Below are positions 285-11,345 of a stretch of DNA of 11,345 nt, in pieces. The notes beneath the pieces were generated by a model that searched no databases, was not told the origin of the DNA, and saw nothing but the letters and a program-made list of their open reading frames with translations. The translations under genes were made by a program, and so were the position numbers. Numbering within the stretch: position 1 is the stretch's first letter; the number at the start of each line of letters is the position of its first letter. This stretch comes from a virus (taxonomy: Duplodnaviria > Heunggongvirae > Uroviricota > Caudoviricetes): IMG/VR virus record IMGVR_UViG_2529293038_000029. One strand, written 5' to 3'.

Positions 285-310
285 TTCTTGATTACGTTGG
301 TTTGGGAGAA
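285..310. other. Left hix/gix-like recombination site of the invertible segment
   Basis: Read on the minus strand it is TTCTCCCAAACC-AA-CGTAATCAAGAA: 12-bp half-sites around an AA core. The inner half is identical to the right site and resembles hix/gix half-sites (TTCTTGAAAACC). It encodes the VGLGE junction of the plus-strand tail-fibre frame. Confidence 0.6.
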
Positions 311-829
311 GGTGCTCCAGCTATTGGCGTTCCGTTCTTCTGGCCGTCCGCCGCAATGCCAAATACTGTAATCGACAGTTGGTCCAGTATGGTGTTTTTG
401 AAGTTCAACGGCGCGAAATTCTCTGCCACTGATTACCCTGTGCTGGCGAAAGTGTTTCCGGCGCTAGCATTACCTGACGCACGGGGTGATTTCATTCGTA
501 TCTGGGATGATGGGCGCGGGATTGATGTCGGACGTACCCTACTTTCAGGGCAATCACACACAATTATGGATCATGCACACAATATGGAATTGTGGACGGG
601 GGGCGGGCTTGCTGCAGGAAGTGCACGGGAAGGAGTAACCCCAGGAATACTGGCTACATATGGTGACGGGGGAATAGTTAAAACGGACGAACCCGGTCTT
701 AAGGTGCCTTCCTCACTACGAGCTCTTAGCTCTCGTAGTGTTAAACGTTATGGTGAAATTAGTGGACATGTAGGTACAGAAACCCGTCCACGAAATATTG
801 CATTTAACTTTCTGGTGAGGGCTAAATAA
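302..829 (+). CDS. Tail-fibre C-terminal variable (receptor-binding) cassette; no constant N-terminal part in frame upstream
   Basis: Carries the phage tail-collar pattern (PFFWP, YP.L...FP....LPD.RG.F.R..D.GRG.D..R..GS.Q.H.H.H) and ends ...PRNIAFNFLVRAK like other tail-fibre tips. The frame is open from 260 across the recombination site but is stopped by TGA at 257..259; there is no ATG, so the track start at 302 is a TTG. Its stop overlaps the next start (TAATG). Confidence 0.7.
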   Translation: MGEGAPAIGVPFFWPSAAMPNTVIDSWSSMVFLKFNGAKFSATDYPVLAKVFPALALPDARGDFIRIWDDGRGIDVGRTLLSGQSHTIMDHAHNMELWTGGGLAAGSAREGVTPGILATYGDGGIVKTDEPGLKVPSSLRALSSRSVKRYGEISGHVGTETRPRNIAFNFLVRAK

Positions 830-1422
830 TGAAACCTGTTTTTGATGAAAATGGGCTGACTACAGTGCCGGGCGATATGCGTTGTTTTTATTATAATGCA
901 GTAACGTATGAATATACCGGCTGGTCTGATGAATATATTAATACTGGCGTAAGTATACCCGCCTGTTCCACTGGTATTGACCCGGGCGAAAACATTCCGG
1001 GAAAAGTGGCAGTATTTACGGGTAAGGGATGGAGCCATGAAGAAGACCATCGCAATGAGACCGTTTACTCAACTGAAAATGGCGCAGCTGTTACAGTGGA
1101 TTATATCGGTGCCATCAAAGACGGTTATGTCACGCTTTCACCGTTAACGCCATACGATAAATGGGATGGTGAGAAATGGGTGACGGATACCGAGGCACAG
1201 CATAGCGCCGCAGTAGAAGCGGCAGAAGCACAGCGCCAGTCGCTGATTGATGCAGCAATGGCTTCCATCAGTCTGATTCAACTGAAATTACAGGCTGAGC
1301 GGAAGCTGACGCAGCCAGAAAACACCCGACTTAACACTGTGCTGGATTACATTGACGCGGTGACGGCAACAGATACCAGCACAGCGCCGGACGTCATCTG
1401 GCCTGAACTGCCGGAGGCGTAG
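829..1422 (+). CDS. Tail-fibre assembly protein (Tfa, P2 G / Mu U-like)
   Basis: 197 aa, directly downstream of and translationally coupled to the fibre cassette. Has the conserved Tfa C-terminus (...TAPDVIWPELPEA). Confidence 0.8.
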   Translation: MKPVFDENGLTTVPGDMRCFYYNAVTYEYTGWSDEYINTGVSIPACSTGIDPGENIPGKVAVFTGKGWSHEEDHRNETVYSTENGAAVTVDYIGAIKDGYVTLSPLTPYDKWDGEKWVTDTEAQHSAAVEAAEAQRQSLIDAAMASISLIQLKLQAERKLTQPENTRLNTVLDYIDAVTATDTSTAPDVIWPELPEA

Positions 1423-1834
1423 GCCATTCAATATCTGGCGCACCGGAAGTATCGACCAGTTCCAGTGCGTCCAGATAATCCAGCCACAAATTATATTGCG
1501 CCAGTTCCTCACCTTTCAGCCGGCCAATAGCCGCTTTACCAGGCCATTGTTTACTGTTCATATAATCGTTGGCCTGATTAATCAGTTGCTGCTTTTCCAG
1601 TTCGGCTGCAGCAATCTGTTCCTCATGTGTTGGTGGTGGAATTTCAGACCATGCAGGAAAACCATTTTCTCCAGCGATACGGATTTTTCCTTTCGGCGGT
1701 AATCCGGAAAACTCAATATACACTTGCTCATCAACTTCAACAGCATCATCTGGCCATGAGTCAGCTTGAGTGTAATCCTCTTTCATCTCCAGCGGATAGA
1801 AAGAGTTTGTAGTCGCGGAATATATGTAATTCAT
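1394..1834 (-). CDS. Alternate tail-fibre assembly protein (Tfa', Mu U'-like)
   Basis: 146 aa with N-terminus MNYIYSATTNSFYP and C-terminus ...SGAPDIEWPTPPA, typical of the Tfa family. GGAG Shine-Dalgarno 7 nt upstream of the ATG at 1834. Convergent with, and overlapping, the plus-strand Tfa by 29 nt. Confidence 0.8.
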   Translation of the reverse strand: MNYIYSATTNSFYPLEMKEDYTQADSWPDDAVEVDEQVYIEFSGLPPKGKIRIAGENGFPAWSEIPPPTHEEQIAAAELEKQQLINQANDYMNSKQWPGKAAIGRLKGEELAQYNLWLDYLDALELVDTSGAPDIEWPTPPAVQAR

Positions 1835-1855
1835 TTTTCACTCCATATAGCTAAA

Positions 1856-2248
1856 TTAACAGCCTAACGCTAAAAATGAAGCGCCGAGGCCAGGAGTACT
1901 GGCTCTGGATATAAATTTAACCGGGTCGGGACTAAAACCTGCACAGGCAATATAACCAACAGACCCGCTATCTGGTGTGTAGTCTTGTGAAACCAAAACA
2001 CGCAGACATCTGTTTGGAAATGCAATCGGGAAATGGGTTACTACATCCTGTGCAATGCCTGGTGCGCCGATTGAGCCCCACTGAAGAATAAAACCTGATG
2101 GTAATTTTTGATATCCAGTACCTGAAACAGAAAGCGTGAAGCTACCCATATCAGGTATCTGATTCGTCCCTGTCCCCACATTCTTTTTTGCCGCTTCTCC
2201 CAAACCAACGTTTAAGAAAATGCAGAGATTATGGCTAACTGGCATCAT
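1856..2248 (-). CDS. Alternate tail-fibre C-terminal variable cassette (Sv'-like), promoterless in this configuration
   Basis: Minus-strand ORF immediately upstream of Tfa', reading through the right recombination site (encodes NVGLGE). Its apparent N-terminus (to 2248) is antisense to the invertase leader and is probably not a real start. I do not recognise the domain. Confidence 0.55.
2195..2220. other. Right hix/gix-like recombination site of the invertible segment
   Basis: TTCTCCCAAACC-AA-CGTTTAAGAAAA: imperfect dyad, 12 + 2 + 12 bp with an AA core, close to hixL (TTCTTGAAAACC AA GGTTTTTGATAA). Lies just upstream of the invertase gene. Confidence 0.65.
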
Positions 2249-2502
2249 CCCCGGTTTTTATTCAGGGGATCCATCATGCTTATTGGCTATGTCCGCGTAT
2301 CAACAAATGACCAGAATACAGAATTGCAGCGTAACGCGCTGGAGTGCGCAGGATGTGAACTGATTTTTGAAGATAAAATCAGCGGAACGAAATCAGCCAG
2401 ACCGGGATTGAAAAAACTGATCAGAACGCTATCAGAAGGAGATACGCTGGTTGTCTGGAAGCTGGACAGACTGGGCAGAAGTATGAAACACCTGATCACG
2501 CT
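2195..2502. repeat. Right arm of the long inverted repeat (recombination site, invertase leader and first ~76 codons)
   Basis: Reverse-complement identity with 1..310 as described for the left arm. Confidence 0.85.
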
Positions 2503-2875
2503 TATTGAGGAATTGCGGGAAAAAGGTGTTAATTTCCGTAGTCTGACGGACAGCATTGACACATCAACACCCATGGGGCGTTTCTTTTTTCACGTCATGG
2601 GGGCTTTAGCCGAAATGGAACGTGAATTAATTGTAGAGCGTACACTGGCCGGGCTGGCAGCAGCACGCGCACAAGGACGCATTGGCGGACGTCGCCCGAA
2701 GTTGACAAAAGAACAACACGAGCAAATAGCGAGGCTGATTAAAAACGGTCATGACAGGAAACAACTGGCGATCATTTACGACATCGGCATATCGACGATT
2801 TATCGTTATCACCCTGTAGGCGATATACAGGCTGAAGAAACAACCAGGCAGACTCAGGAAAATGAAAACCGCTAA
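2276..2875 (+). CDS. Site-specific DNA invertase, serine recombinase of the Gin/Hin/Pin/Cin (Din) family
   Basis: MLIGYVRVSTNDQ N-terminus with the catalytic serine in the VRVSTNDQ motif, a resolvase-type catalytic domain (GDTLVVWKLDRLGRS) and a C-terminal helix-turn-helix (RKQLAIIYDIGISTIYRY). Start taken at the ATG at 2276, which has an AGGGGA Shine-Dalgarno; the track ORF starts upstream at 2231. Product is 199 aa. Confidence 0.9.
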   Translation: MLIGYVRVSTNDQNTELQRNALECAGCELIFEDKISGTKSARPGLKKLIRTLSEGDTLVVWKLDRLGRSMKHLITLIEELREKGVNFRSLTDSIDTSTPMGRFFFHVMGALAEMERELIVERTLAGLAAARAQGRIGGRRPKLTKEQHEQIARLIKNGHDRKQLAIIYDIGISTIYRYHPVGDIQAEETTRQTQENENR

Positions 2876-2901: not shown

Positions 2902-3396
2902 TCAAAACAGCCCTTTAACGGAGCTGGCCGCGCTGTTAAGGGATGATGTGACCTTATCTTTGAAGCCGGACAGCATATCACTGAACGATGAGGATTGCAG
3001 GCGCTCCCGCAAATCCTCATCACAGCGTTCAAGGGTCAGTGAAAATTCTATCTTTTTCGCCTTACCGTAGCGATCAAACTCGGAACGGGTCGTATTCGTT
3101 CCAGTCAGGACATACATGCCGTAAATCTGCCCGACGCCATCAATCAAAGGCCAGGGTCGTCCTGTATAAGCCTGCGTGGTCAGCAGCGACAGCGACACTT
3201 CGCCACCTGTAATTTCAGGATAAAGCACACCAGAAAGAACGATGCGATCATCACCTGCACCGATATACTGCCAGCTTGCTGAACGGTTAATGCGTTCATT
3301 TTTCACATGCCGCCAGCTTTTGTTTTGCTGTAACTGCTGATGCGGCAGCGTGCGCAGCTCAAAAACAAACATGCCGTAGATCATCATCATGGCCAT
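2902..3396 (-). CDS. U: Tail protein U (P2 gpU-like)
   Basis: 164 aa; the motif ...SWRH..NERINRSASWQY.G.....LSGV.YPEITGGE... matches P2 gpU. Immediately downstream of the tape measure gene. Confidence 0.8.
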   Translation of the reverse strand: MAMMMIYGMFVFELRTLPHQQLQQNKSWRHVKNERINRSASWQYIGAGDDRIVLSGVLYPEITGGEVSLSLLTTQAYTGRPWPLIDGVGQIYGMYVLTGTNTTRSEFDRYGKAKKIEFSLTLERCDEDLRERLQSSSFSDMLSGFKDKVTSSLNSAASSVKGLF

Positions 3397-3402
3397 GACT
3401 CC

Positions 3403-6246
3403 TCAATCTTTATCGTAAAAACTGCCACGCCCGGCACGGGCGCGCCGTTCCATTTCTGCCCTGACCATTTCACCGACCAGTTTCGCCAGTTCGCGGGGAT
3501 TCTGCGTAACAACGTTATGCAGATGAACATGAATTTCACCACCAAATTCGGAGGCAACAGGCTCCCGGTTACGGGAAGTTACAGGAACTGATGCCACTGG
3601 AGATCGTATAGCCTCCGCCACCGGGCGGGAGCTGGCCGCAACAACAGTGACCAGCGCCGGAGGCAGCGGAGCCGGAACCACAGGTGTGATATTAATTGCG
3701 GGGGCAGGCTTACTGACCTGCGCAATCTTCCGCTCCTGCCACTCCCCACGAACAGCAAGTGCCCGGGGCAGGTTTTTAAAGACAATATCGCCGGGGCCAA
3801 TGCGTTTTTTCGTCTCCTCAACCAGCTTACCTGTGTTATCAGCAATTTTGCTGAGTCTGCGCAGCGTACCGGTATTGCTGTCTGTGAGCGGTTTATTGTC
3901 TTTGGGGTTATCACCTCCGGTGCCATTGCCATTTTCCACAGGCTTCGGCGGATTGATTTTCGCCAGGTCCCCCTGAAGCAAGGCAACCTTGTCCTGAAGA
4001 ATGGCCGCACGCTGTGCGTCTTCGATTTTCTTGCGCGCCCTTTCCGCTTCATCCGGAAGCACACCAAGCTTTTCAAGTATCCACGCCAGCGTATCCAGCA
4101 ACATTTTTGCAGGTGTCAGAACAAGTTGTAACGCACCGCCAAGAACGTTACCGAATATCTCGCCAGCACTGGTACATTTATCCAGAGTTTCCTTGCTGGA
4201 CTCCATCGGTGACAGCAGCGATTTAAACCAGTTAAACACCTGGCTTATCCCGCTTCCGATTGCGTCAAAAACAGGACCAAACCGTTCAAAGGTTTCGCGC
4301 AACGGGGCCAGCCGCTCCATAATCCCACTGAACACCCCGGCAAAAAATGCCCTGATTGGGTCCCAGTATTTCCAGATAAGAATGGCAGCTCCGGCAAGCG
4401 CAGCCACGATAAGACCAACCGGACTGAACAGCGCCCCGATAGCGCCCCCCAGTAACGAAACGGAACCCGTCACCATTCCCCATAGTGCTGGCAGAACCCT
4501 GACAGCATTCATTGATCCGGTCAGGAGGGAAAAACCAAGACGCAGTTTTGCCAGCGGGCCAGCAAGCACACCAATAGCCAGCGACAACGAGCCAACCGTT
4601 GCAGTCATTGCCAGCAGTGCACCGCCTGCAATCAGTAGCTGGCGCGTCAGTGCGGGATGGGCCTGCGCCAGCGCCGTCACCTTTGATACCACACGCGTGA
4701 GCCACTGCGTGACAGAACGCAGCGGACCGTCAATCAGATCTGCAATGCGGATGCGCAACCCTTCCCATGCACTGCTGAGTGATTTCAGATCGCCGTCAAG
4801 GTTGTTGGCCATAACCTTTGCCGTGCGTTCAGCCTCACCGCGCGCGCCTTCAAGTTCTTTTCTCAGTTTGGGTAAGGAGCCGTCACCTGCCGCATCAACG
4901 AGGGCCATAAATGATGTGAAAGCCTCTTCTCCGGCAATGTCCTTAAAGAACGATACCCGGTCAACTTCCCCGTATTTGCGGGTAGCTTTATAAAGGTCAG
5001 CCAGCACATCCTCCATCGGGCGCATTTTGCCCCCGGCATCCGAGACAGACACGCCAAGCTCTTTCAGCGCCTCTGCTGCCGCCTTTGGCGGTGATGCCAG
5101 ACGAGCCAGGCTGGCACGCATTGCCGTACCAGCATCACTCCCCCTGATACCCATATTCGCCAGCACGCCCGCCATCGCTGCGGCCTGCTCCAGCGATATT
5201 CCCAGCTTACCCGCCACCGGACCTGCATATTTCATGGTTTCACCCAGTGCGCGAAGGTCAGTGTTGGTACGGGTAAACGCTGCGGTGAGTGTGTCGCCGA
5301 CCCGGTCCATCTGGTCAGCAGAAAGACCGAACTGCGTCAGAATATTTGAGCCAATATCCGCCGTCTCACCGAGGTCCATACCGCCAGCCGTTGCCATGCT
5401 CAGTACGCCAGGGAGCGCAGCCTGAATGGCCTGTGGTGTGAAGCCAGCCATTGCAAGAAATGCCTGCCCACTGGCGGCATCGCCTGCGGTGAACTGCGTT
5501 TCAGAGCCAAGTTTTAACGCCTGCTCACGCAGCGCCTTAAACTGCGGGCTGTTTTTGTCGATTCGCGTCAGTGCCTGAACGCGGGACATCTCTTTCCCGA
5601 ACCCGATCGCAGGCTGCAAAAAACGCCCGGCAGCATAGCCGCCCGCCGCTGCCGCACCAATTGCCAGCGCACCACCTGTTTTCAGTTTTCCCGCTGTTTC
5701 CTGCGCGCGCGAATACCGCTCACGCGCCTGCGTTACACGCGCAAGCGCCTGCCGTTCGCGTTCAAGCTGGTTGTTGTACTGTTCGGTGCGTCTGATGGCC
5801 TGCTGGATGGTGTTATCGCTGCCTGTCAGGGAAATGCCGTGGCGTTTCAGCTCTCCGCCAATCTCCCGCATTTTCTGAATTTCCCGTGTGCGCGATTCAT
5901 TCAGGCGTTCAAGCCGGGTGCTTAACTGCTGCATCAGCTTTTGTTGTTTTTCGCTGAGCACTGTACCCGTGCGTTGTAACTGATTAAGGGCGTTAAGCTG
6001 GCGTCGTGCTTTCACGATACCCGCATCCGCTTTACTGACAGCGTCGCGGGCGCGCTCAAATGAACGCGCCTGACGCTCGAGATTTTTGATCGCCCCCTGC
6101 GTTCGCTGGATGGAGTCACCAAACTGCCCCATCAGGCGGCGGGCGTTTTCGGCAGGCCGGGTCAGCCTGTCAACGGCGCTGAAAGCGACCCGGATATCAA
6201 GAGTCTTCATTGTCTGCATTCCCGCTGCGAAGTGCCGCCCGCTCAC
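3403..6246 (-). CDS. T: Tail tape measure protein (P2 gpT-like)
   Basis: 947 aa with a coiled-coil N-terminus, a central glycine/alanine-rich hydrophobic region and tape-measure core motifs. Sits between E/E' and U. The start is uncertain: GTG at 6246, or ATG at 6219 or 6210. Confidence 0.85.
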   Translation of the reverse strand: MSGRHFAAGMQTMKTLDIRVAFSAVDRLTRPAENARRLMGQFGDSIQRTQGAIKNLERQARSFERARDAVSKADAGIVKARRQLNALNQLQRTGTVLSEKQQKLMQQLSTRLERLNESRTREIQKMREIGGELKRHGISLTGSDNTIQQAIRRTEQYNNQLERERQALARVTQARERYSRAQETAGKLKTGGALAIGAAAAGGYAAGRFLQPAIGFGKEMSRVQALTRIDKNSPQFKALREQALKLGSETQFTAGDAASGQAFLAMAGFTPQAIQAALPGVLSMATAGGMDLGETADIGSNILTQFGLSADQMDRVGDTLTAAFTRTNTDLRALGETMKYAGPVAGKLGISLEQAAAMAGVLANMGIRGSDAGTAMRASLARLASPPKAAAEALKELGVSVSDAGGKMRPMEDVLADLYKATRKYGEVDRVSFFKDIAGEEAFTSFMALVDAAGDGSLPKLRKELEGARGEAERTAKVMANNLDGDLKSLSSAWEGLRIRIADLIDGPLRSVTQWLTRVVSKVTALAQAHPALTRQLLIAGGALLAMTATVGSLSLAIGVLAGPLAKLRLGFSLLTGSMNAVRVLPALWGMVTGSVSLLGGAIGALFSPVGLIVAALAGAAILIWKYWDPIRAFFAGVFSGIMERLAPLRETFERFGPVFDAIGSGISQVFNWFKSLLSPMESSKETLDKCTSAGEIFGNVLGGALQLVLTPAKMLLDTLAWILEKLGVLPDEAERARKKIEDAQRAAILQDKVALLQGDLAKINPPKPVENGNGTGGDNPKDNKPLTDSNTGTLRRLSKIADNTGKLVEETKKRIGPGDIVFKNLPRALAVRGEWQERKIAQVSKPAPAINITPVVPAPLPPALVTVVAASSRPVAEAIRSPVASVPVTSRNREPVASEFGGEIHVHLHNVVTQNPRELAKLVGEMVRAEMERRARAGRGSFYDKD

Positions 6247-6726
6247 GCCAGCTAACCACTTCGCCGGGCGTCATCATGAAGATTTCGGCGGGCGACCAGT
6301 TAAAAATAACGGCAATATCTGCCACAAAGTCTTCTATGTGCTCAAAGCACACAACCGTGATCAGGCTTCCGTCGCCTGTTCGTTCTTCCCGCCAGAGTCC
6401 GCACCGCTCAAAAAATTTACGGCAACCACACATAACTGAATAAAGTCACGGGATGCCATTTTTTTGATCGTCACTTCATCCAGTCGCGGTGATGTCACGC
6501 GTGACAGCAGCGTAAACATGGATTCCGCTTTCAGATTCAGCACATCAGACAGCGACAAATCTCGCAGAGATCCAGCCTGCTCAATAGCCCCGGTGATCTC
6601 CACATACGTGATTTTTTCGCCGCCTCGCTCAATTGGTTGGGTAAGTTTTACGCCACGCTCACTGGTTTCTTTCACAGTGTCAGCAACTACCGTGTTTTCG
6701 GTATCGATGTTTTTCGTCTCTTTCAT
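6197..6726 (-). CDS. E+E' fusion chaperone, made by a programmed -1 ribosomal frameshift
   Basis: The -1 frame after the slippery site stays open to the stop at 6197..6199 and overlaps the start of T, as in P2 E/E'. Predicted fusion is about 176 aa. Confidence 0.6.
6361..6726 (-). CDS. E: Tail assembly chaperone E (P2 gpE-like), zero-frame product
   Basis: 121-aa ORF between FII and T, with a GGAG Shine-Dalgarno upstream of the ATG at 6726. Contains the slippery heptamer T_TTT_TTG spanning codons 104-106. Confidence 0.7.
   Translation of the reverse strand: MKETKNIDTENTVVADTVKETSERGVKLTQPIERGGEKITYVEITGAIEQAGSLRDLSLSDVLNLKAESMFTLLSRVTSPRLDEVTIKKMASRDFIQLCVVAVNFLSGADSGGKNEQATEA
6409..6415 (-). 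other. Programmed -1 frameshift slippery heptamer TTTTTTG (E to E+E')
   Basis: Plus strand reads CAAAAAA at 6409..6415, which is T TTT TTG on the coding strand in the correct register (AAT TTT TTG). Identical to the P2 E/E' shift site. Confidence 0.7.
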
Positions 6727-6780
6727 CAGGAAACTCCTTTCAGTCAGAGGCGACGCACTGCGCCGCCTGCATATTACTTA

Positions 6781-7293
6781 TCAGCCAAGCCCAAGCGCGG
6801 AACGGATGCGATCGGGCACAATGTCCTTGCCGTCCTTCCGGTAAATGAAGTTCAGCAGGTCAATCTCCCACAGCGGGCGATCGTTAACGCTCAGCTTGTA
6901 GTAGGTGTTTTTAATGGCGTAAGAGTGTGATGTGGCTTCGCCCTGTTTGGCTTCCCCCATATCAATTTCCGTCACACGTCCGCGCATTTCGACTTCATAC
7001 AGGTCGCTTTCTGCATCGGTGTAGTATTCACCCGCAAAACGCAGCAGCGTGCCGTCAATCGTGCCGCCATACTTAAGGAACAGCTCACGAACTGCGCCCC
7101 CCATGACAAAGCTCGCATCAAGCGCGGAGTCGTCCAGACCGAGATCAATACTTACCGCACCCATCATGCCACCACCCCGGTAGCTGTCGGTTTTGCGCGT
7201 CAGCTTAGGCAGAGTGACGGACGTCACCTTACCCACTTCGTTTTCACCATCCACAAACAGCGTAAAAAAGCGAAGATGTTTTGGCACAGCCAT
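6781..7293 (-). CDS. FII: Major tail tube protein (P2 gpFII-like)
   Basis: 170 aa; motifs VTLPKLTRK..YRG.GM.G, DLGLDD, RFAG.Y, MRGR..EID.GE.KQGE match P2 FII. GGGAGG Shine-Dalgarno; the start overlaps the FI stop (TGATG). Confidence 0.88.
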   Translation of the reverse strand: MAVPKHLRFFTLFVDGENEVGKVTSVTLPKLTRKTDSYRGGGMMGAVSIDLGLDDSALDASFVMGGAVRELFLKYGGTIDGTLLRFAGEYYTDAESDLYEVEMRGRVTEIDMGEAKQGEATSHSYAIKNTYYKLSVNDRPLWEIDLLNFIYRKDGKDIVPDRIRSALGLG

Positions 7294-8477
7294 CAGGCAC
7301 CTCCCAGCACCGCAAATGCGGGTTCAAAGTATTCATCAGTAAACGTCTGGTAAAGCTCCATATCTTCCAGCGGGGGAACAGGCGTATATTTGTAGCGAAT
7401 ACGCACACGCCCCTGACGTAAATCCGTGGTGCTGTTATCCACCACGTCATACCAGCACTCCGCGCCAATCAGTTTCCCGGCAGTAACCAGTGAATCCAGT
7501 TTTGCCCTGATGGCACTGATAACATCCTTCACGTTCGCAGGCGTCAGTGGACTGTCGATGGTTTCAAACTGCGCTTCCGCAATTGAATCAGCCAACACCT
7601 GTGCGGTTCGGGTATACACCTCAAAGATGTAGGCGTTCGTTTCCGGTGTGCGGTTGCCCCAGAAGCGGAACCCGTTGCGACGAATAATGGTCGTGATTTC
7701 TTTGTTGTTGAGGCTGTTGGCATCACTGTCTTCGGCCTGCAACGACCAGAACACATGCCTGGACATCCCCAGCACATTTTTAACCGGAACGTTGGACAGC
7801 GATTTGTGCCAGCCCTGTTCATGGTCAATGTACGCACGGAGGCCGCACGCATAGGCAGGCGCGGGGAACGTTTCGTTTTTGCCACTTTTGGGGTTGTAGG
7901 CGATGAAGTCCGGCCATAAGAGCATCACCTCACGTTCGTTGAATTTCTGGCGGTAGGTAATCGCCTCAGCCATCGTGTTACAGCCGTGACATGAGGCATA
8001 CACAAACGCGCGCAGTTTACCTGCAATCACGCACAGGGATTTTGTTACAGCCTCCGTGTCCAGCTCCGGCGCGGCCAGAATACGCGGACGGTATCCGATG
8101 CTTTCATCCTGCTCTGCAACAAGCAGCGCATACATCCCCGTATAGCTGCCGTCATCCTCAGAACCACCGATAACCAGTTGATCCTGCGTCTTTCCGTCTT
8201 CTTCTTTGTGTTCAGCCACGCGAACGACGATCACCTTTGTGCTCACCTGGTCTGCAATGGCCTTAAGCGCACGATAAAGCGTCCCCGTTGTCCCGCATTT
8301 TCCCAGCACGTCATTGACGCGGGTCAGCAGTGTGGGCTTGTTCAGCGGGAACAGCTTCGCGTCCGCATCATCCGCCGTTGCCACGATACCGATAACGCTG
8401 GAATCAACATCGTTAATCGCTGTTACCAGGTCGGTATTTTCCGTAACACGGGCACCATGAAAACGAGTTTCACTCAT
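7293..8477 (-). CDS. FI: Contractile tail sheath protein (P2 gpFI-like)
   Basis: 394 aa; motifs DADA..FPLNKP, KLRAF, YRQ.F..RE.M..WPDF, DHEQGWHKSLSNV, FRFWGNRT, YTRTAQV.AD, YKYTPVPPLE match P2 FI. Confidence 0.88.
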   Translation of the reverse strand: MSETRFHGARVTENTDLVTAINDVDSSVIGIVATADDADAKLFPLNKPTLLTRVNDVLGKCGTTGTLYRALKAIADQVSTKVIVVRVAEHKEEDGKTQDQLVIGGSEDDGSYTGMYALLVAEQDESIGYRPRILAAPELDTEAVTKSLCVIAGKLRAFVYASCHGCNTMAEAITYRQKFNEREVMLLWPDFIAYNPKSGKNETFPAPAYACGLRAYIDHEQGWHKSLSNVPVKNVLGMSRHVFWSLQAEDSDANSLNNKEITTIIRRNGFRFWGNRTPETNAYIFEVYTRTAQVLADSIAEAQFETIDSPLTPANVKDVISAIRAKLDSLVTAGKLIGAECWYDVVDNSTTDLRQGRVRIRYKYTPVPPLEDMELYQTFTDEYFEPAFAVLGGA

Positions 8478-8634
8478 AGCTTCAGCCCCTTGTATCCGTT
8501 AAATGATTCGGCAACAATCATCACCCACCACGCGCGTAATCTCACCCCTGCGCCGTTCTCCCGACCCGGCGACAACAAAAAGCAGTAACCCCCTCCGCAC
8601 GCACATGCGACCATGCCGCACAGGGAGGGAACAG

Positions 8635-9744
8635 ATGACCGACACCACCATGCAATTGCTCAGTCAGGGCACAGACCCCGTGAAAATGCCGGATTTTGAT
8701 ATTCTTGCGGAGGGTAAAACGCTGTCAGGCGTGGCAGAGCGCCTGATGAGCCTGTCACTGACCGACAACCGGGGATTTGAGGCGGACCAGCTCACCATCA
8801 CGCTGGATGATGCGGATGGTCAGTTGCAGCTACCGCCACGGGGCGCGCGCCTGACGGTTCTCATTGGCTGGAAAGGAGAACCGCTGACAGAAAAAGGCAC
8901 TTACATTGTTGATGAAATCGCTCACGAAGGACCGCCGGACAGGCTGACTGTTTCAGCCAGAAGCGCAGATTTTCGGGATGAATTTAACGTTAAACGTGAG
9001 GTGTCCTGGCATGATGTGACCCTTGAGCGTGTGGTATCCGCCATCGCTCATCGGTATGGTCTGAAACCACAAATCAGCGAAATGCTGATGGATATCGAAA
9101 TCGACCACGCCGACCAGACCGAAGAAAGCGACATGTCCTTCCTTACGCGCATGGCGGAAATGCTGGGCGCAATCACCACGGTAAAAAGCGGTAATCTGTT
9201 ATTCATCATGCCAGGCGGTGGCGTGAACGCACAGGGCCAGCCGTTGCCCTCGTTCGCCATCACGCGCAGCAGTGGCGATCGCCATCAGTTCCGCATTGCT
9301 GACCGCGAAGCGTATACGGGGGTACGCGCTTACTGGCTTGATCTTAATTACGGGAAAAAGAAAAAAGTCAGCGTGAAACGCCGCAAACCGCCAAAACCCA
9401 AAAAGGAGAAAAGCAGCAGCCGTGAAGGTGATTATATGGAAGGCGCAGAAGGCAATGTGTTTGTGTTACGCAAGACTTATCAGAACGAACAGGCAGCAAG
9501 ACGCGCAGCGGCGGCAAAGTGGCAGCAGCTACAACGCGGAGCCGCAGCGTTCTCCATCACACTGGCACGTGGACGCGCAGAACTCTACCCCGAAATGCAT
9601 GGCACGGTAACAGGATTTAAAAGCGAAATTGATAATCAGGACTGGATTATTGCAAAAGCCGAGCACACCATTGATAACAGTGGCTTTACCACGCAGCTTG
9701 AGCTTGAAGCCAAAATCCCGGAATGGATAGCAGAAACAGAGTAA
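8635..9744 (+). CDS. D: Tail protein D (P2 gpD, late control gene D family)
   Basis: About 369 aa with Phage_GPD-like N-terminal motifs (DFDILAEGKTLSG, LSLTDNRGFEADQLTITLDD). Start placed at the ATG at 8635 because of the strong GGGAGGG Shine-Dalgarno; the track ORF begins upstream at 8503. Transcribed divergently from FI. Confidence 0.8.
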   Translation: MTDTTMQLLSQGTDPVKMPDFDILAEGKTLSGVAERLMSLSLTDNRGFEADQLTITLDDADGQLQLPPRGARLTVLIGWKGEPLTEKGTYIVDEIAHEGPPDRLTVSARSADFRDEFNVKREVSWHDVTLERVVSAIAHRYGLKPQISEMLMDIEIDHADQTEESDMSFLTRMAEMLGAITTVKSGNLLFIMPGGGVNAQGQPLPSFAITRSSGDRHQFRIADREAYTGVRAYWLDLNYGKKKKVSVKRRKPPKPKKEKSSSREGDYMEGAEGNVFVLRKTYQNEQAARRAAAAKWQQLQRGAAAFSITLARGRAELYPEMHGTVTGFKSEIDNQDWIIAKAEHTIDNSGFTTQLELEAKIPEWIAETE

Positions 9745-9938
9745 ACAACTTAGATGCATTAGCCCTGACATTTGCTAACGCGCTTACAGCAAGAATCATA
9801 ACCAATCTGACAGCCTACCCGGTGTCAAAATCAGAAGAGCCTTACATTAGAATATGTTAATTTGTAGCAAACAAATTTACACACAAATGATTACTGCTGA
9901 AATAGCCCCCATAAATACCATGTCAAAGGATCCATGTT

Positions 9939-10604
9939 ATGAATATGCAAATTTTTATCGCACCAGCAGCCACAGTTGCTGCAGTCTGCCTTGCTGCATA
10001 TTTTGCTTTACGAAATGAACGTAAAAAGAAAGCACTTGAGATTAGAACAACTCAACTAGATCGAATATCAGAGCTAGTAAACCGAGCATCTACCAATTTG
10101 ATGCAATATACAGGTACTCTTGCCTCTATACTGGAAGCGCACGCCAAAGATAATTATCTACCGAACAAAAAATTTGACATTAATGTAATTAGCAAATGGA
10201 AAGATTGCCTCGATGAGAGTGAGGTCTGGGCGATTGATAGACAGCAACTAAGAACATGTCAGCACAGTCTGGAGTTTCATCGTGAAAAAGAATGGGCTGA
10301 ATGGAAAAAAATAATTCCACCATTACTTGATAAAATTGACCAATTTTTTCTCATATCTAAGCCAGGGCAACCTGTTACGTTTATAAATGGCCAAAACAAA
10401 ACAGCTGATGAACTACTTGTTTTCTCAAGATATTTGAGAAAACAAACAGCAGAAATTGAATCAGTACGTCAGCTGTTACTTTCTCAAATGAGAGAGGAAT
10501 TCATCGAGTTAACTAGCTTTGAACCTGTCACAATGTTTAGCTTATTTAAATCAATAAAGAAAAATGTCATGCAATTTTTCTGTATCAGTGCTCTTAAAAA
10601 TTGA
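9939..10604 (+). CDS. Hypothetical membrane-anchored protein: one N-terminal transmembrane helix plus about 190 aa soluble domain; AT-rich cargo gene
   Basis: 221-aa ORF with AAGGA Shine-Dalgarno 8 nt upstream. Hydrophobic N-terminus (IFIAPAATVAAVCLAAYFAL) followed by a K/E-rich domain I do not recognise. Visibly lower GC than the flanking phage genes. Confidence 0.6.
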   Translation: MNMQIFIAPAATVAAVCLAAYFALRNERKKKALEIRTTQLDRISELVNRASTNLMQYTGTLASILEAHAKDNYLPNKKFDINVISKWKDCLDESEVWAIDRQQLRTCQHSLEFHREKEWAEWKKIIPPLLDKIDQFFLISKPGQPVTFINGQNKTADELLVFSRYLRKQTAEIESVRQLLLSQMREEFIELTSFEPVTMFSLFKSIKKNVMQFFCISALKN

Positions 10605-10619
10605 CGCTCTGTTGCAAGC

Positions 10620-10650
10620 AACCCCAGTGTTAAACTGGGGTTATTCTTGC
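10620..10650 (+). terminator. Intrinsic terminator downstream of the AT-rich ORF
   Basis: 9-bp perfect stem AACCCCAGT-gttaa-ACTGGGGTT followed by a T-rich tract (TATTCTTG). Confidence 0.55.
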
Positions 10651-10753
10651 TAAGAGACCTTTCTACGGCATCAGTAAACAAAACGAACTATCAGTTGGAG
10701 TCTGAGCAAGTTCAGCCTAAACTAGCGACAGCACTACGTTAAGGGAGGTCGCT

Positions 10754-11014
10754 ATGTTCCGTTGTCCGCTTTGTGGCGCATCTGCCCGTATCCGCACCAG
10801 TCGTCCGGAAAATGATTCAAACACCGTGCGGCAAAAGTATTACCAGTGTAACAACCTGGAATGCGGCGTATGCTTCTCAACACTGGAAGCTTTCCATAAA
10901 TTCACATCGAAACACGCCTCCGGCATCCACTCTTCAGAAGATATCCCGTGGCATGAGCTGCCAGCTTCACACAGGGGAAACAATCAGATGAGCTTGCCTT
11001 TACCTCAGAATTAA
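10754..11014 (+). CDS. ogr: Ogr/Delta-family zinc-finger late transcription activator
   Basis: MFRCPLCGASARIRTSR...YYQCNNLECGVCFSTLE matches P2 Ogr (MFHCPLCQHAAHARTSR...YHQCQNVNC..F.T.E), with a Cys-x2-Cys ... Cys-x4-Cys zinc-binding pattern. GGGAGG Shine-Dalgarno. 86 aa, longer than P2 Ogr at the C-terminus. Confidence 0.88.
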   Translation: MFRCPLCGASARIRTSRPENDSNTVRQKYYQCNNLECGVCFSTLEAFHKFTSKHASGIHSSEDIPWHELPASHRGNNQMSLPLPQN

Positions 11015-11074: not shown

Positions 11075-11287
11075 ATGGTCGGAGGGAATACCCGAAGGCC
11101 AGATGTGGAAAGGCCCCGGAAAACATCTCTGTTTAACCGAGGCCCTAACCGCATTACCTTGACAAGTGAAAGGTTAGCGCCTCTCCGGAAAAGGAGCAAG
11201 TGCTATGTCGCAAAAATCGCTTACGGCCATCACGTTCTGCGTGACGGCAATCCTCATCATCTGGATGTTGCACGGTTCGCTGTGTGA
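11075..11287 (+). CDS. mok-like overlapping reading frame of a hok-type locus (tentative)
   Basis: 70-aa ORF in a different frame, starting about 130 nt upstream of the hok-like gene and overlapping it, as mok does in hok/sok loci. Assigned by position and length only. Confidence 0.35.
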   Translation: MVGGNTRRPDVERPRKTSLFNRGPNRITLTSERLAPLRKRSKCYVAKIAYGHHVLRDGNPHHLDVARFAV

Positions 11288-11345
11288 AATACGGATGAGC
11301 TTCTGGGGAGCGGAGTTTGCGGCGTTCTTACAGTGTAAGCAGTAA
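11205..11345 (+). CDS. hok: Hok/Gef-family type I toxin (small membrane peptide)
   Basis: 46 aa, MSQKSLTAITFCVTAILIIWMLHGSLCEIRMSFWGAEFAAFLQCKQ: an N-terminal transmembrane segment then the family signature SLCEIR ... E.AAF (compare Hok [22 protein letters not shown] and HokA ...AAFLACK). AGGAG Shine-Dalgarno 7 nt upstream. The stop codon is the last 3 nt of the window. Confidence 0.75.
   Translation: MSQKSLTAITFCVTAILIIWMLHGSLCEIRMSFWGAEFAAFLQCKQ

Follow-up and report, generated by a model that had tools for sequence, protein, structure and literature searches.

The window analyzed here, the whole 11,345-nucleotide stretch of IMG/VR virus record IMGVR_UViG_2529293038_000029, is the right end of an Escherichia coli prophage, as judged by the gene order in the list of open reading frames (ORFs) and by a domain search. 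Between the tail gene D and the late-gene activator gene ogr it carries a low-GC cassette, which we firmly identify as a single-gene moron, probably self-contained, at a minor variable slot (the D-ogr slot) of a P88-like prophage. The cargo ORF is a real gene under purifying selection, and its 221-residue product is predicted to be a bitopic protein of the inner membrane, its short N-terminus lying outside and a helical bundle of ~195 residues in the cytoplasm. Based on the genes with which it is associated, the cargo protein is tentatively regarded as a stand-alone phage-exclusion factor acting at the inner membrane. Prophage morons at variable slots, including candidate defense genes, are a well-known kind of element; the cargo family and the D-ogr slot were not found described in the literature searched, which returned nothing on WP_001057122, the D-ogr slot, or P88-like cargo.

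In the window, 1009 bp separate the D stop codon (9744) from the ogr ATG (10754), compared with 42 bp in P88 and at the cargo-free locus of enterotoxigenic E. coli H10407 (L005). A comparison with the H10407 locus by blastn, combined with alignment of the junctions, placed the breakpoints at ~9754/9755 and ~10722/10723 and thus gave an insert of 968 bp. When computed in 300-bp windows, the GC content drops from 0.50-0.56 to 0.36-0.38 over positions ~9750-10650. The cargo ORF itself has a GC content of 0.360, and of 0.279 at third codon positions (GC3), compared with 0.47-0.57 and 0.47-0.61, respectively, in eight neighboring genes, and none of the nine genes tested deviates more in synonymous codon usage. 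A preliminary description of this DNA had noted approximately 1 kb of AT-rich sequence parting D and ogr, with a 221-residue ORF preceded by a Shine-Dalgarno sequence, and had proposed a horizontally acquired moron that should differ from its flanks in GC content and codon usage. All of this was borne out: the ORF is in the ORF list at 9939..10604, AAGGA (9926-9930) lies 8 nt before its ATG, and the foreign composition is accompanied by an empty site in ~720 other genomes and by the same gene in unrelated mobile contexts. A conserved core gene at this position would have refuted the proposal, but the cargo gene does not belong to the conserved P2-family core.

Slot occupancy was counted over 5426 complete E. 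coli genomes. The junction is intact and empty in ~720 of them and filled in ~145, an occupancy of ~17%, and four cassette types were seen, each holding a single gene. These encode a 340-aa hypothetical protein (65 genomes), the 221-aa cargo protein (57-58 genomes, including enteropathogenic E. coli (EPEC) E2348/69 and O55:H7 CB9615), a DUF2971 protein (16 genomes), and an alpha/beta-hydrolase (six genomes). The DUF2971 protein matches the defense candidate PDC-S31 (PADLOC, E 5e-27). The 340-aa protein, the commonest alternative cargo (L003 1966-2988, minus strand), gave a sub-threshold match to HEPN_RiboL-PSP (E 1e-4, 22.5 bits; cutoff 28.4) and could, by this likeness, be an RNase-type abortive-infection protein. 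The cargo ORF is intact in nearly all of its 58 carrier genomes. In two genomes (e.g. E. coli AR_0128, L043 794-1491) an IS1 element lies ~45 bp 5' of the intact ORF and cuts off the conserved block upstream. In phage 520873 (L021 4503-4901) the ORF is truncated to 124-132 aa, D is fragmented, and an IS100 resides in the sheath gene.

About ten contexts in all were sampled, among them the D-ogr slot of P88-like prophages (the window and L027), and PADLOC was used to name the neighboring genes. Outside this slot, the cargo gene was found in lambdoid prophages, either between the antiterminator gene Q and the holin gene on the late-gene strand (L017-L020) or in a nin-like region beside a colicin gene (L023-L025). 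It was also found in an integrase island with a helicase and a TIR gene nearby (L026), directly 3' of an integrase gene (L032), in a conjugative element after a 1292-aa nSTAND NTPase (L033-L035), with an integrase and a SNIPE-like gene (L037), beside Gabija (L038), in a conjugative-element backbone (L039), and at an Erwinia chromosomal locus with a hydrolase, cytochrome b, and a Rieske oxygenase as neighbors (L036 and L040). Approximately five of the ten contexts have a neighbor matching PADLOC or nSTAND models, these being plain counts. The PADLOC matches are PD-Lambda-1 in L037 (E 9e-240), GajA in L038 (E 1e-242, together with a UvrD-type GajB), MkoC for the 1207-aa, Mokosh-like helicase of L026 (E 5e-63), and the candidate PDC-S42 in L017 (E 2e-34). 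The homologue with 73% identity resides both in the lambdoid prophage L023, between the replication genes and Q and on the strand opposite to the surrounding early genes including Q, and in the integrase island beside the 1207-aa helicase. In the Kluyvera-like contigs of this prophage (L023 4077-5652), the pore-forming colicin domain is part of a 408-aa protein, and the colicin gene is followed on the other strand by a 100-aa gene, placed where an immunity gene usually lies; both genes are located just upstream of the cargo homologue.

No neighbor is conserved across the contexts, and a hidden Markov model search of all ORFs of all fetched loci found exactly one family copy per locus; the cargo gene therefore acts alone or with host factors. 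A two-gene cassette with an alpha/beta-hydrolase partner was considered and rejected, as the hydrolases of the Erwinia locus and of the D-ogr slot are only generically similar (27% over 161 residues). The anti-phage role suggested in the preliminary description is supported indirectly, through association, by the defense genes beside homologues (PD-Lambda-1, GajA/GajB, MkoC-like, nSTAND, and PDC-S42) and by PDC-S31 as an alternative cargo of the same slot, but some contexts lack a defense neighbor altogether, and neither homology nor fold adds to the case.

An exhaustive HMMER profile search recovered 23 family clusters among 1.84 billion representatives; a word-indexed search of protein clusters recovered seven. 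All members are annotated as hypothetical, and those with a named source all belong to the Enterobacterales (Escherichia, Kluyvera, Enterobacter, Klebsiella, Citrobacter, Salmonella, Cedecea, Yersinia, Pantoea, and Erwinia). A genome scan with a tight alignment returned the Erwinia locus only. Nearly every full-length member measures 214-235 aa, and homologues down to 19% identity, from at least ten genera, keep this length and the architecture described below. The ratio of nonsynonymous to synonymous substitution rates (dN/dS) is 0.34 against an 85% identical homologue and 0.24 against a 73% identical one, falling to 0.07-0.18 in the transmembrane and juxtamembrane segment and to 0.06-0.11 in the distal loop. 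Conservation likewise peaks in the hydrophobic helix and the juxtamembrane region (0.75 and 0.78, compared with 0.42-0.54 elsewhere), where codons 24-35 form the conserved motif LRNExxKKxLEI. A 100-degree periodicity in the conservation points to a single conserved helical face, P9-T12-V16-A20-L24. In the 16 aligned members P9, A20, L24, K30, K31, H114, and W122 are invariant, and conservation is also high in an FF(M/L)I(T/S)xPG loop.

A single hydrophobic segment is present in the cargo protein, at residues 5-24 (positions 9951..10010), with a Kyte-Doolittle mean of 2.11 over 19 residues and no other segment above threshold, in agreement with the single N-terminal transmembrane helix described before. 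The flanking charges, 0 on the N side and +4 on the C side, predict an N-out/C-in orientation. A hydrophobic N-terminal segment is present in 16 of 16 members (Kyte-Doolittle means 1.34-2.11), followed by a C flank of +1 to +4; the N-flank charge ranges from -2 to +1, with 14 members at -1 or 0; this flank is negative or neutral in 15 members and carries +1 in P0016. AlphaFold2, run with 16 sequences, gave a confident helical bundle with a predicted local distance difference test score (pLDDT) of 85.4 and a predicted template modelling score of 0.71, and all five models scored 80-85. In the model a continuous helix spanning residues 4-71 comprises both the transmembrane segment and the first bundle helix, and is followed by helices 81-93, 101-114, 116-136, and 156-192, with a two-strand bridge pairing 78-80 with 153-155 at the membrane-distal tip. 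A C-terminal helix, 199-219, was modelled at lower confidence; it appears amphipathic by its residues and, again with low confidence, may return toward the membrane. From the helix connectivity, an FHR turn (113-115) and W122 are probably membrane-proximal, near the juxtamembrane lysines. The charged soluble domain of the preliminary description is better described as a helical bundle with a predicted cytoplasmic location.

Searches of Pfam, NCBIfam, PHROGs, and PADLOC with the cargo protein matched no family, and the 16 aligned members gave only noise, with no consistent match, against Pfam and PADLOC. The best PADLOC-DB v2 match was REase_II (E 0.023, 13 bits). A profile search of the PDB returned nothing below E 0.03, and Foldseek found nothing with E <0.05 in the PDB or BFVD. 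The protein thus has no motif that can be placed, as had been stated from the sequence, and matches no family of these collections by sequence or fold.

We also compared the cargo protein with known exclusion proteins. SieA of phage P22 is likewise the product of a single prophage-borne gene and located in the inner membrane (PMC10883804), but no homology between the two was detected. The alignment covered just 20 residues, where the transmembrane helix ends, and the cargo protein combines one transmembrane helix with a large helical domain whose predicted location is the cytoplasm; membership of the SieA family was rejected (hhalign probability 0.7%). SieB of P22 and lambda and Tin and Fun(Z) of P2 are, according to the annotations of the P2 and P22 records, single non-essential prophage genes in accessory positions that exclude other phages. 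In this they resemble the cargo gene, but they show no homology to it and differ in size and architecture; SieB was rejected at an hhalign probability of 0.6% with no Pfam match, and Tin and Fun(Z) at 0.1% each. In the four-helix-bundle (4HB) sensor domains of histidine kinases and chemoreceptors (for instance NarQ, Tar, and QseE), the first bundle helix also runs on from a transmembrane helix. Identity to these domains is 6-14%, and bundles designed de novo reach equal or higher scores; the 4HB likeness is therefore one of fold class only. The 4HB domains are periplasmic with a second transmembrane helix, whereas the cargo protein has one helix and a bundle predicted to be cytoplasmic. Membership was rejected in the absence of a significant Foldseek match, a Pfam match, and a second transmembrane helix.

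If the cargo protein is a phage-exclusion factor, a version resembling abortive infection is preferred, since the prediction places the large domain in the cytoplasm. The cytoplasmic bundle would sense or bind a component of the infecting phage, and the conserved transmembrane and juxtamembrane segment would then act, either by membrane-perturbing self-association or through a conserved host membrane partner. In a second, less likely version, DNA entry would be blocked from the cytoplasmic face. Several observations weigh against an exclusion factor of any kind. The sequence libraries, Foldseek, and hhalign revealed no likeness in sequence or structure to known defense, exclusion, or abortive-infection proteins, and membrane effectors of defense systems usually have at least two transmembrane helices. 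The N-out/C-in topology is a prediction whose sole basis is the positive-inside rule, and in some members the hydrophobic segment is borderline (Kyte-Doolittle means 1.34-1.55). A promoter scan and an alignment of the copies found no conserved consensus sigma-70 promoter upstream of the ORF, and a gene of 36% GC could be silenced by H-NS. Defense neighbors are absent from the Erwinia loci L036 and L040 and from the conjugative element L039. Finally, no region has a dN/dS above 1, hence there is no arms-race signature, in a comparison of three sequences with low power.

It is rather unlikely, yet worth weighing, that the cargo gene is instead a lysogenic-conversion gene unrelated to defense, which modulates a host envelope process such as division, stress response, transport, or colonisation, and benefits the host in its niche. 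The lack of defense homology speaks for such a role, as do the non-defense neighborhood on the Erwinia chromosome, the position as cargo in a conjugative-element backbone, and the pore-forming colicin next to the gene in one lambdoid prophage. E. coli has bitopic helical proteins of N-out/C-in topology that include the division and envelope factors ZipA and YhcB. This role is less consistent with the repeated adjacency to well-supported defense genes in independent contexts and with the defense candidates among the other cargos of the D-ogr slot. In addition, a rare and patchy family of 23 clusters is typical of accessory conflict genes and not of physiology genes.

Superinfection exclusion by a block of DNA entry, in which the transmembrane helix would bind the inner-membrane component or the phage conduit through which the genome is delivered and the protein would be a functional analogue of SieA, Imm, or HK97 gp15, is considered improbable. 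A prophage-carried protein with a predicted inner-membrane location would suit this function, and the concentration of conservation on one helical face of the transmembrane and juxtamembrane part hints at a specific contact between helices within the membrane. Most of the protein is, however, predicted to lie in the cytoplasm, the wrong side for a conduit in the periplasm or membrane, the hhalign probability against P22 SieA was negligible as given above, and the many hosts and non-phage elements that carry the gene are a poor fit to a target restricted to one phage group.

More improbable still is an accessory function in the lytic cycle of the carrier itself, such as lysis timing, holin modulation, or counter-defense, with expression among the late genes. 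The homologue between Q and the holin gene on the late-gene strand of lambdoid contigs is consistent with such a function. So are the membrane location, which holins and antiholins share, and the position behind D, with no terminator between D and the cargo ORF in a terminator scan, which makes late read-through from D into the ORF possible. The occurrence of the family in conjugative elements, in phage-gene-free integrase islands, and at a chromosomal locus speaks against a function tied to lytic growth of a phage, however, and in one lambdoid prophage the gene is oriented against the surrounding early genes including Q. Most P88-like phages, including the inducible reference P88, lack the gene, and Pfam and PHROGs searches detected no similarity to holin or antiholin families. 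That the ORF is nonfunctional, either the remnant of a decaying gene or a chance reading frame in AT-rich junk, as its truncation in phage 520873, the upstream IS1 of two genomes, and the missing consensus promoter might suggest, is effectively refuted by its conservation. The dN/dS of 0.24-0.34, the full-length homologues of the same architecture down to 19% identity, the confident structure prediction, and the intact ORF in nearly all carriers speak against it.

Part of the upstream DNA travels with the cargo ORF. The ORF and ~100-140 bp upstream of it recur at 77-78% nucleotide identity in the lambdoid prophage and the integrase island. The homology starts at 9797 against the lambdoid copy (L023) and at 9842 against the island copy (L026) and ends at 10611, which excludes the hairpin 3' of the ORF. 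Within this block the 16-nt element GAATATGTTAATTTGT (9850-9865) does not vary at all, whereas identity over the coding DNA is no more than 77%. The block presumably holds a promoter or operator. As for the intrinsic terminator that the preliminary description had placed at 10620..10650, a strong hairpin is present at 10620-10642, but its U-tract is interrupted, and termination is plausible but non-canonical. The hairpin is not kept in cargo copies from other contexts.

The edges of the cassette suggest how ogr may remain expressed. In the empty P88-like allele, TAGAAT ends 30 nt before the ogr ATG, and the breakpoint falls inside it (TAGA|AT). Each cargo allele has a re-made -10 element in the corresponding position, its end 30 nt from the ogr ATG in every allele, with a TTGG-type -35 element exactly 17 nt upstream. 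In the window the predicted rebuilt promoter consists of TTGGAG (10695-10700) and TAAACT (10718-10723), separated by a 17-nt spacer, and scores 7 of 12, compared with 8, 9, and 10 in the other three cargos. The P2 record annotates the -35 and -10 elements of ogr at the equivalent place in the D-ogr spacer, with 33 nt between the end of the -10 and the ATG, as well as a terminator 3' of ogr that serves the ogr and F-operon transcripts alike. The cassette would thus have inserted inside the ogr -10 element, and its right edge would supply a replacement promoter that keeps ogr expressed downstream of the hairpin. The rebuilt promoter in the right frame (10679-10722) would also explain why unrelated cargos have that frame in common, with ogr transcribed 3' of the cassette. 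The left frame (9755-9771) may be a recombination site at which cassettes are exchanged. TTAGA or CTAGA is present at both cassette junctions in L002, L003, and L004 as well as in the window. In BTP5, a P2-like Salmonella prophage, ogr was transcribed in lysogens under all conditions tested (PMC7067206); the D-ogr slot therefore adjoins DNA that is active during lysogeny.

The preliminary description had compared the carrier with phage P2. The carrier is P2-related, but its nearest phages are members of the genus Xuanwuvirus (P88, P884B11, and 520873) and not P2 itself, and the carrier is accordingly P88-like. P88 has the same gene order as the window, including the opposite strands of FI-U and D, and has no cargo between D and ogr. 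The FI-FII-E-T-U block (2902-8477, minus strand) lies opposite D (plus strand), as in P88, while in P2 the genes from FI to D form one operon. From the gene order, this layout appears to be a trait of Xuanwuvirus, and it would require D to own a promoter in the divergent region 8478-8634. The 369-aa D start at 8635 is supported by gene calls in the homologous loci L004 and L027; in RefSeq annotations (PGAP) D is often shortened to 266 aa and accompanied by a spurious antisense pseudo-fragment (window 8503-9744; L001 14492-15345). At the right end, a hok-type gene follows ogr at at least four different host integration sites and in P88 itself, and it is therefore prophage cargo at the extreme right end of the element. 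A search of the whole window against Rfam at gathering thresholds matched no family, neither a Sok-like nor any other RNA. The features of the window are summarized in the table.

Table. Features of the 11,345-nucleotide window (strand: +, -, or. for none).
Feature	Position	Strand	Evidence and remarks
Invertible tail-fibre module, Gin/Cin type	302-2875		Includes DNA invertase, 2231-2875 (+)
Alternative fibre C-termini in the invertible module	302-829; 1856-2248	+; -	
Two tail-fibre assembly genes in the invertible module	829-1422; 1394-1834	+; -	
Tail genes U, T, E, FII, FI	2902-8477	-	
Gene D, tail/baseplate hub, 369 aa; left flank of slot	8635-9744	+	Pfam Phage_GPD, E 1.6e-16
Low-GC cassette, 968 bp, missing from cargo-free P88-like alleles	9755..10722	+	blastn breakpoints, GC profile
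Left frame, common to three of four unrelated cargo alleles	9755..9771	.	Homology with L002 and L003 reaches 9771 and 9769, past the empty-site breakpoint
Block travelling with the ORF to other mobile elements	9842..9938	+	Includes the invariant 16-nt element (9850-9865) and Shine-Dalgarno AAGGA (9926-9930)
Cargo ORF, 221 aa	9939-10604	+	ORF list
Strong stem-loop 3' of the cargo stop codon	10607..10656, core 10620-10642	+	Terminator scan; -26.7 kcal/mol, z = -5.65 against shuffles
Right frame common to different cargo alleles, with predicted ogr promoter and ogr ribosome-binding site	10679..10753	+	Positional conservation
ogr, late-gene activator, 86 aa; right flank of slot	10754-11014	+	Pfam Ogr_Delta, E 5e-14
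hok-type gene	11205-11345	+	Complete 46-aa Hok/Gef-type toxin ORF ending exactly at the window end

Variable slots that hold foreign low-GC cassettes, many of them linked to defense, are described for P2-like phages in PMC9122126, PMC13586616, and the preprint 10.1101/2024.10.15.618418. Their searched text covers old/tin between A and Q, Z/fun within the tail genes, and sites near int. It mentions neither ogr nor gpD, the search not extending to figures and supplements. The D-ogr slot shares the link to defense through the PADLOC candidate PDC-S31 among its alternative cargos. It differs from the P2-like hotspots in its position and genus (D-ogr in P88-like phages), in being filled in ~17% of cases by four types of single-gene cassette, and in that its cassettes cut and rebuild the predicted ogr promoter. 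It is possible, if somewhat doubtful, that the cargo protein is the founding member of an unrecognised anti-phage family, restricted to the Enterobacterales and consisting of a single protein anchored in the inner membrane with a cytoplasmic bundle as sensor and a transmembrane effector, and that the D-ogr slot is an additional cargo and defense hotspot of P88-like prophages with replacement ogr promoters.

Should the cargo gene prove to have no phage phenotype, it would be one more orphan moron of little general interest. If it is a true defense gene, it would represent a compact, single-gene, membrane-based system without similarity to the known ones, and one that is carried by well-studied pathogens such as EPEC E2348/69 and O55:H7 CB9615. 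The slot itself, with unrelated cassettes that enter the ogr promoter and each bring a predicted replacement -35 and -10, would be a neat case of cargo being accommodated without breaking the regulation of the phage.

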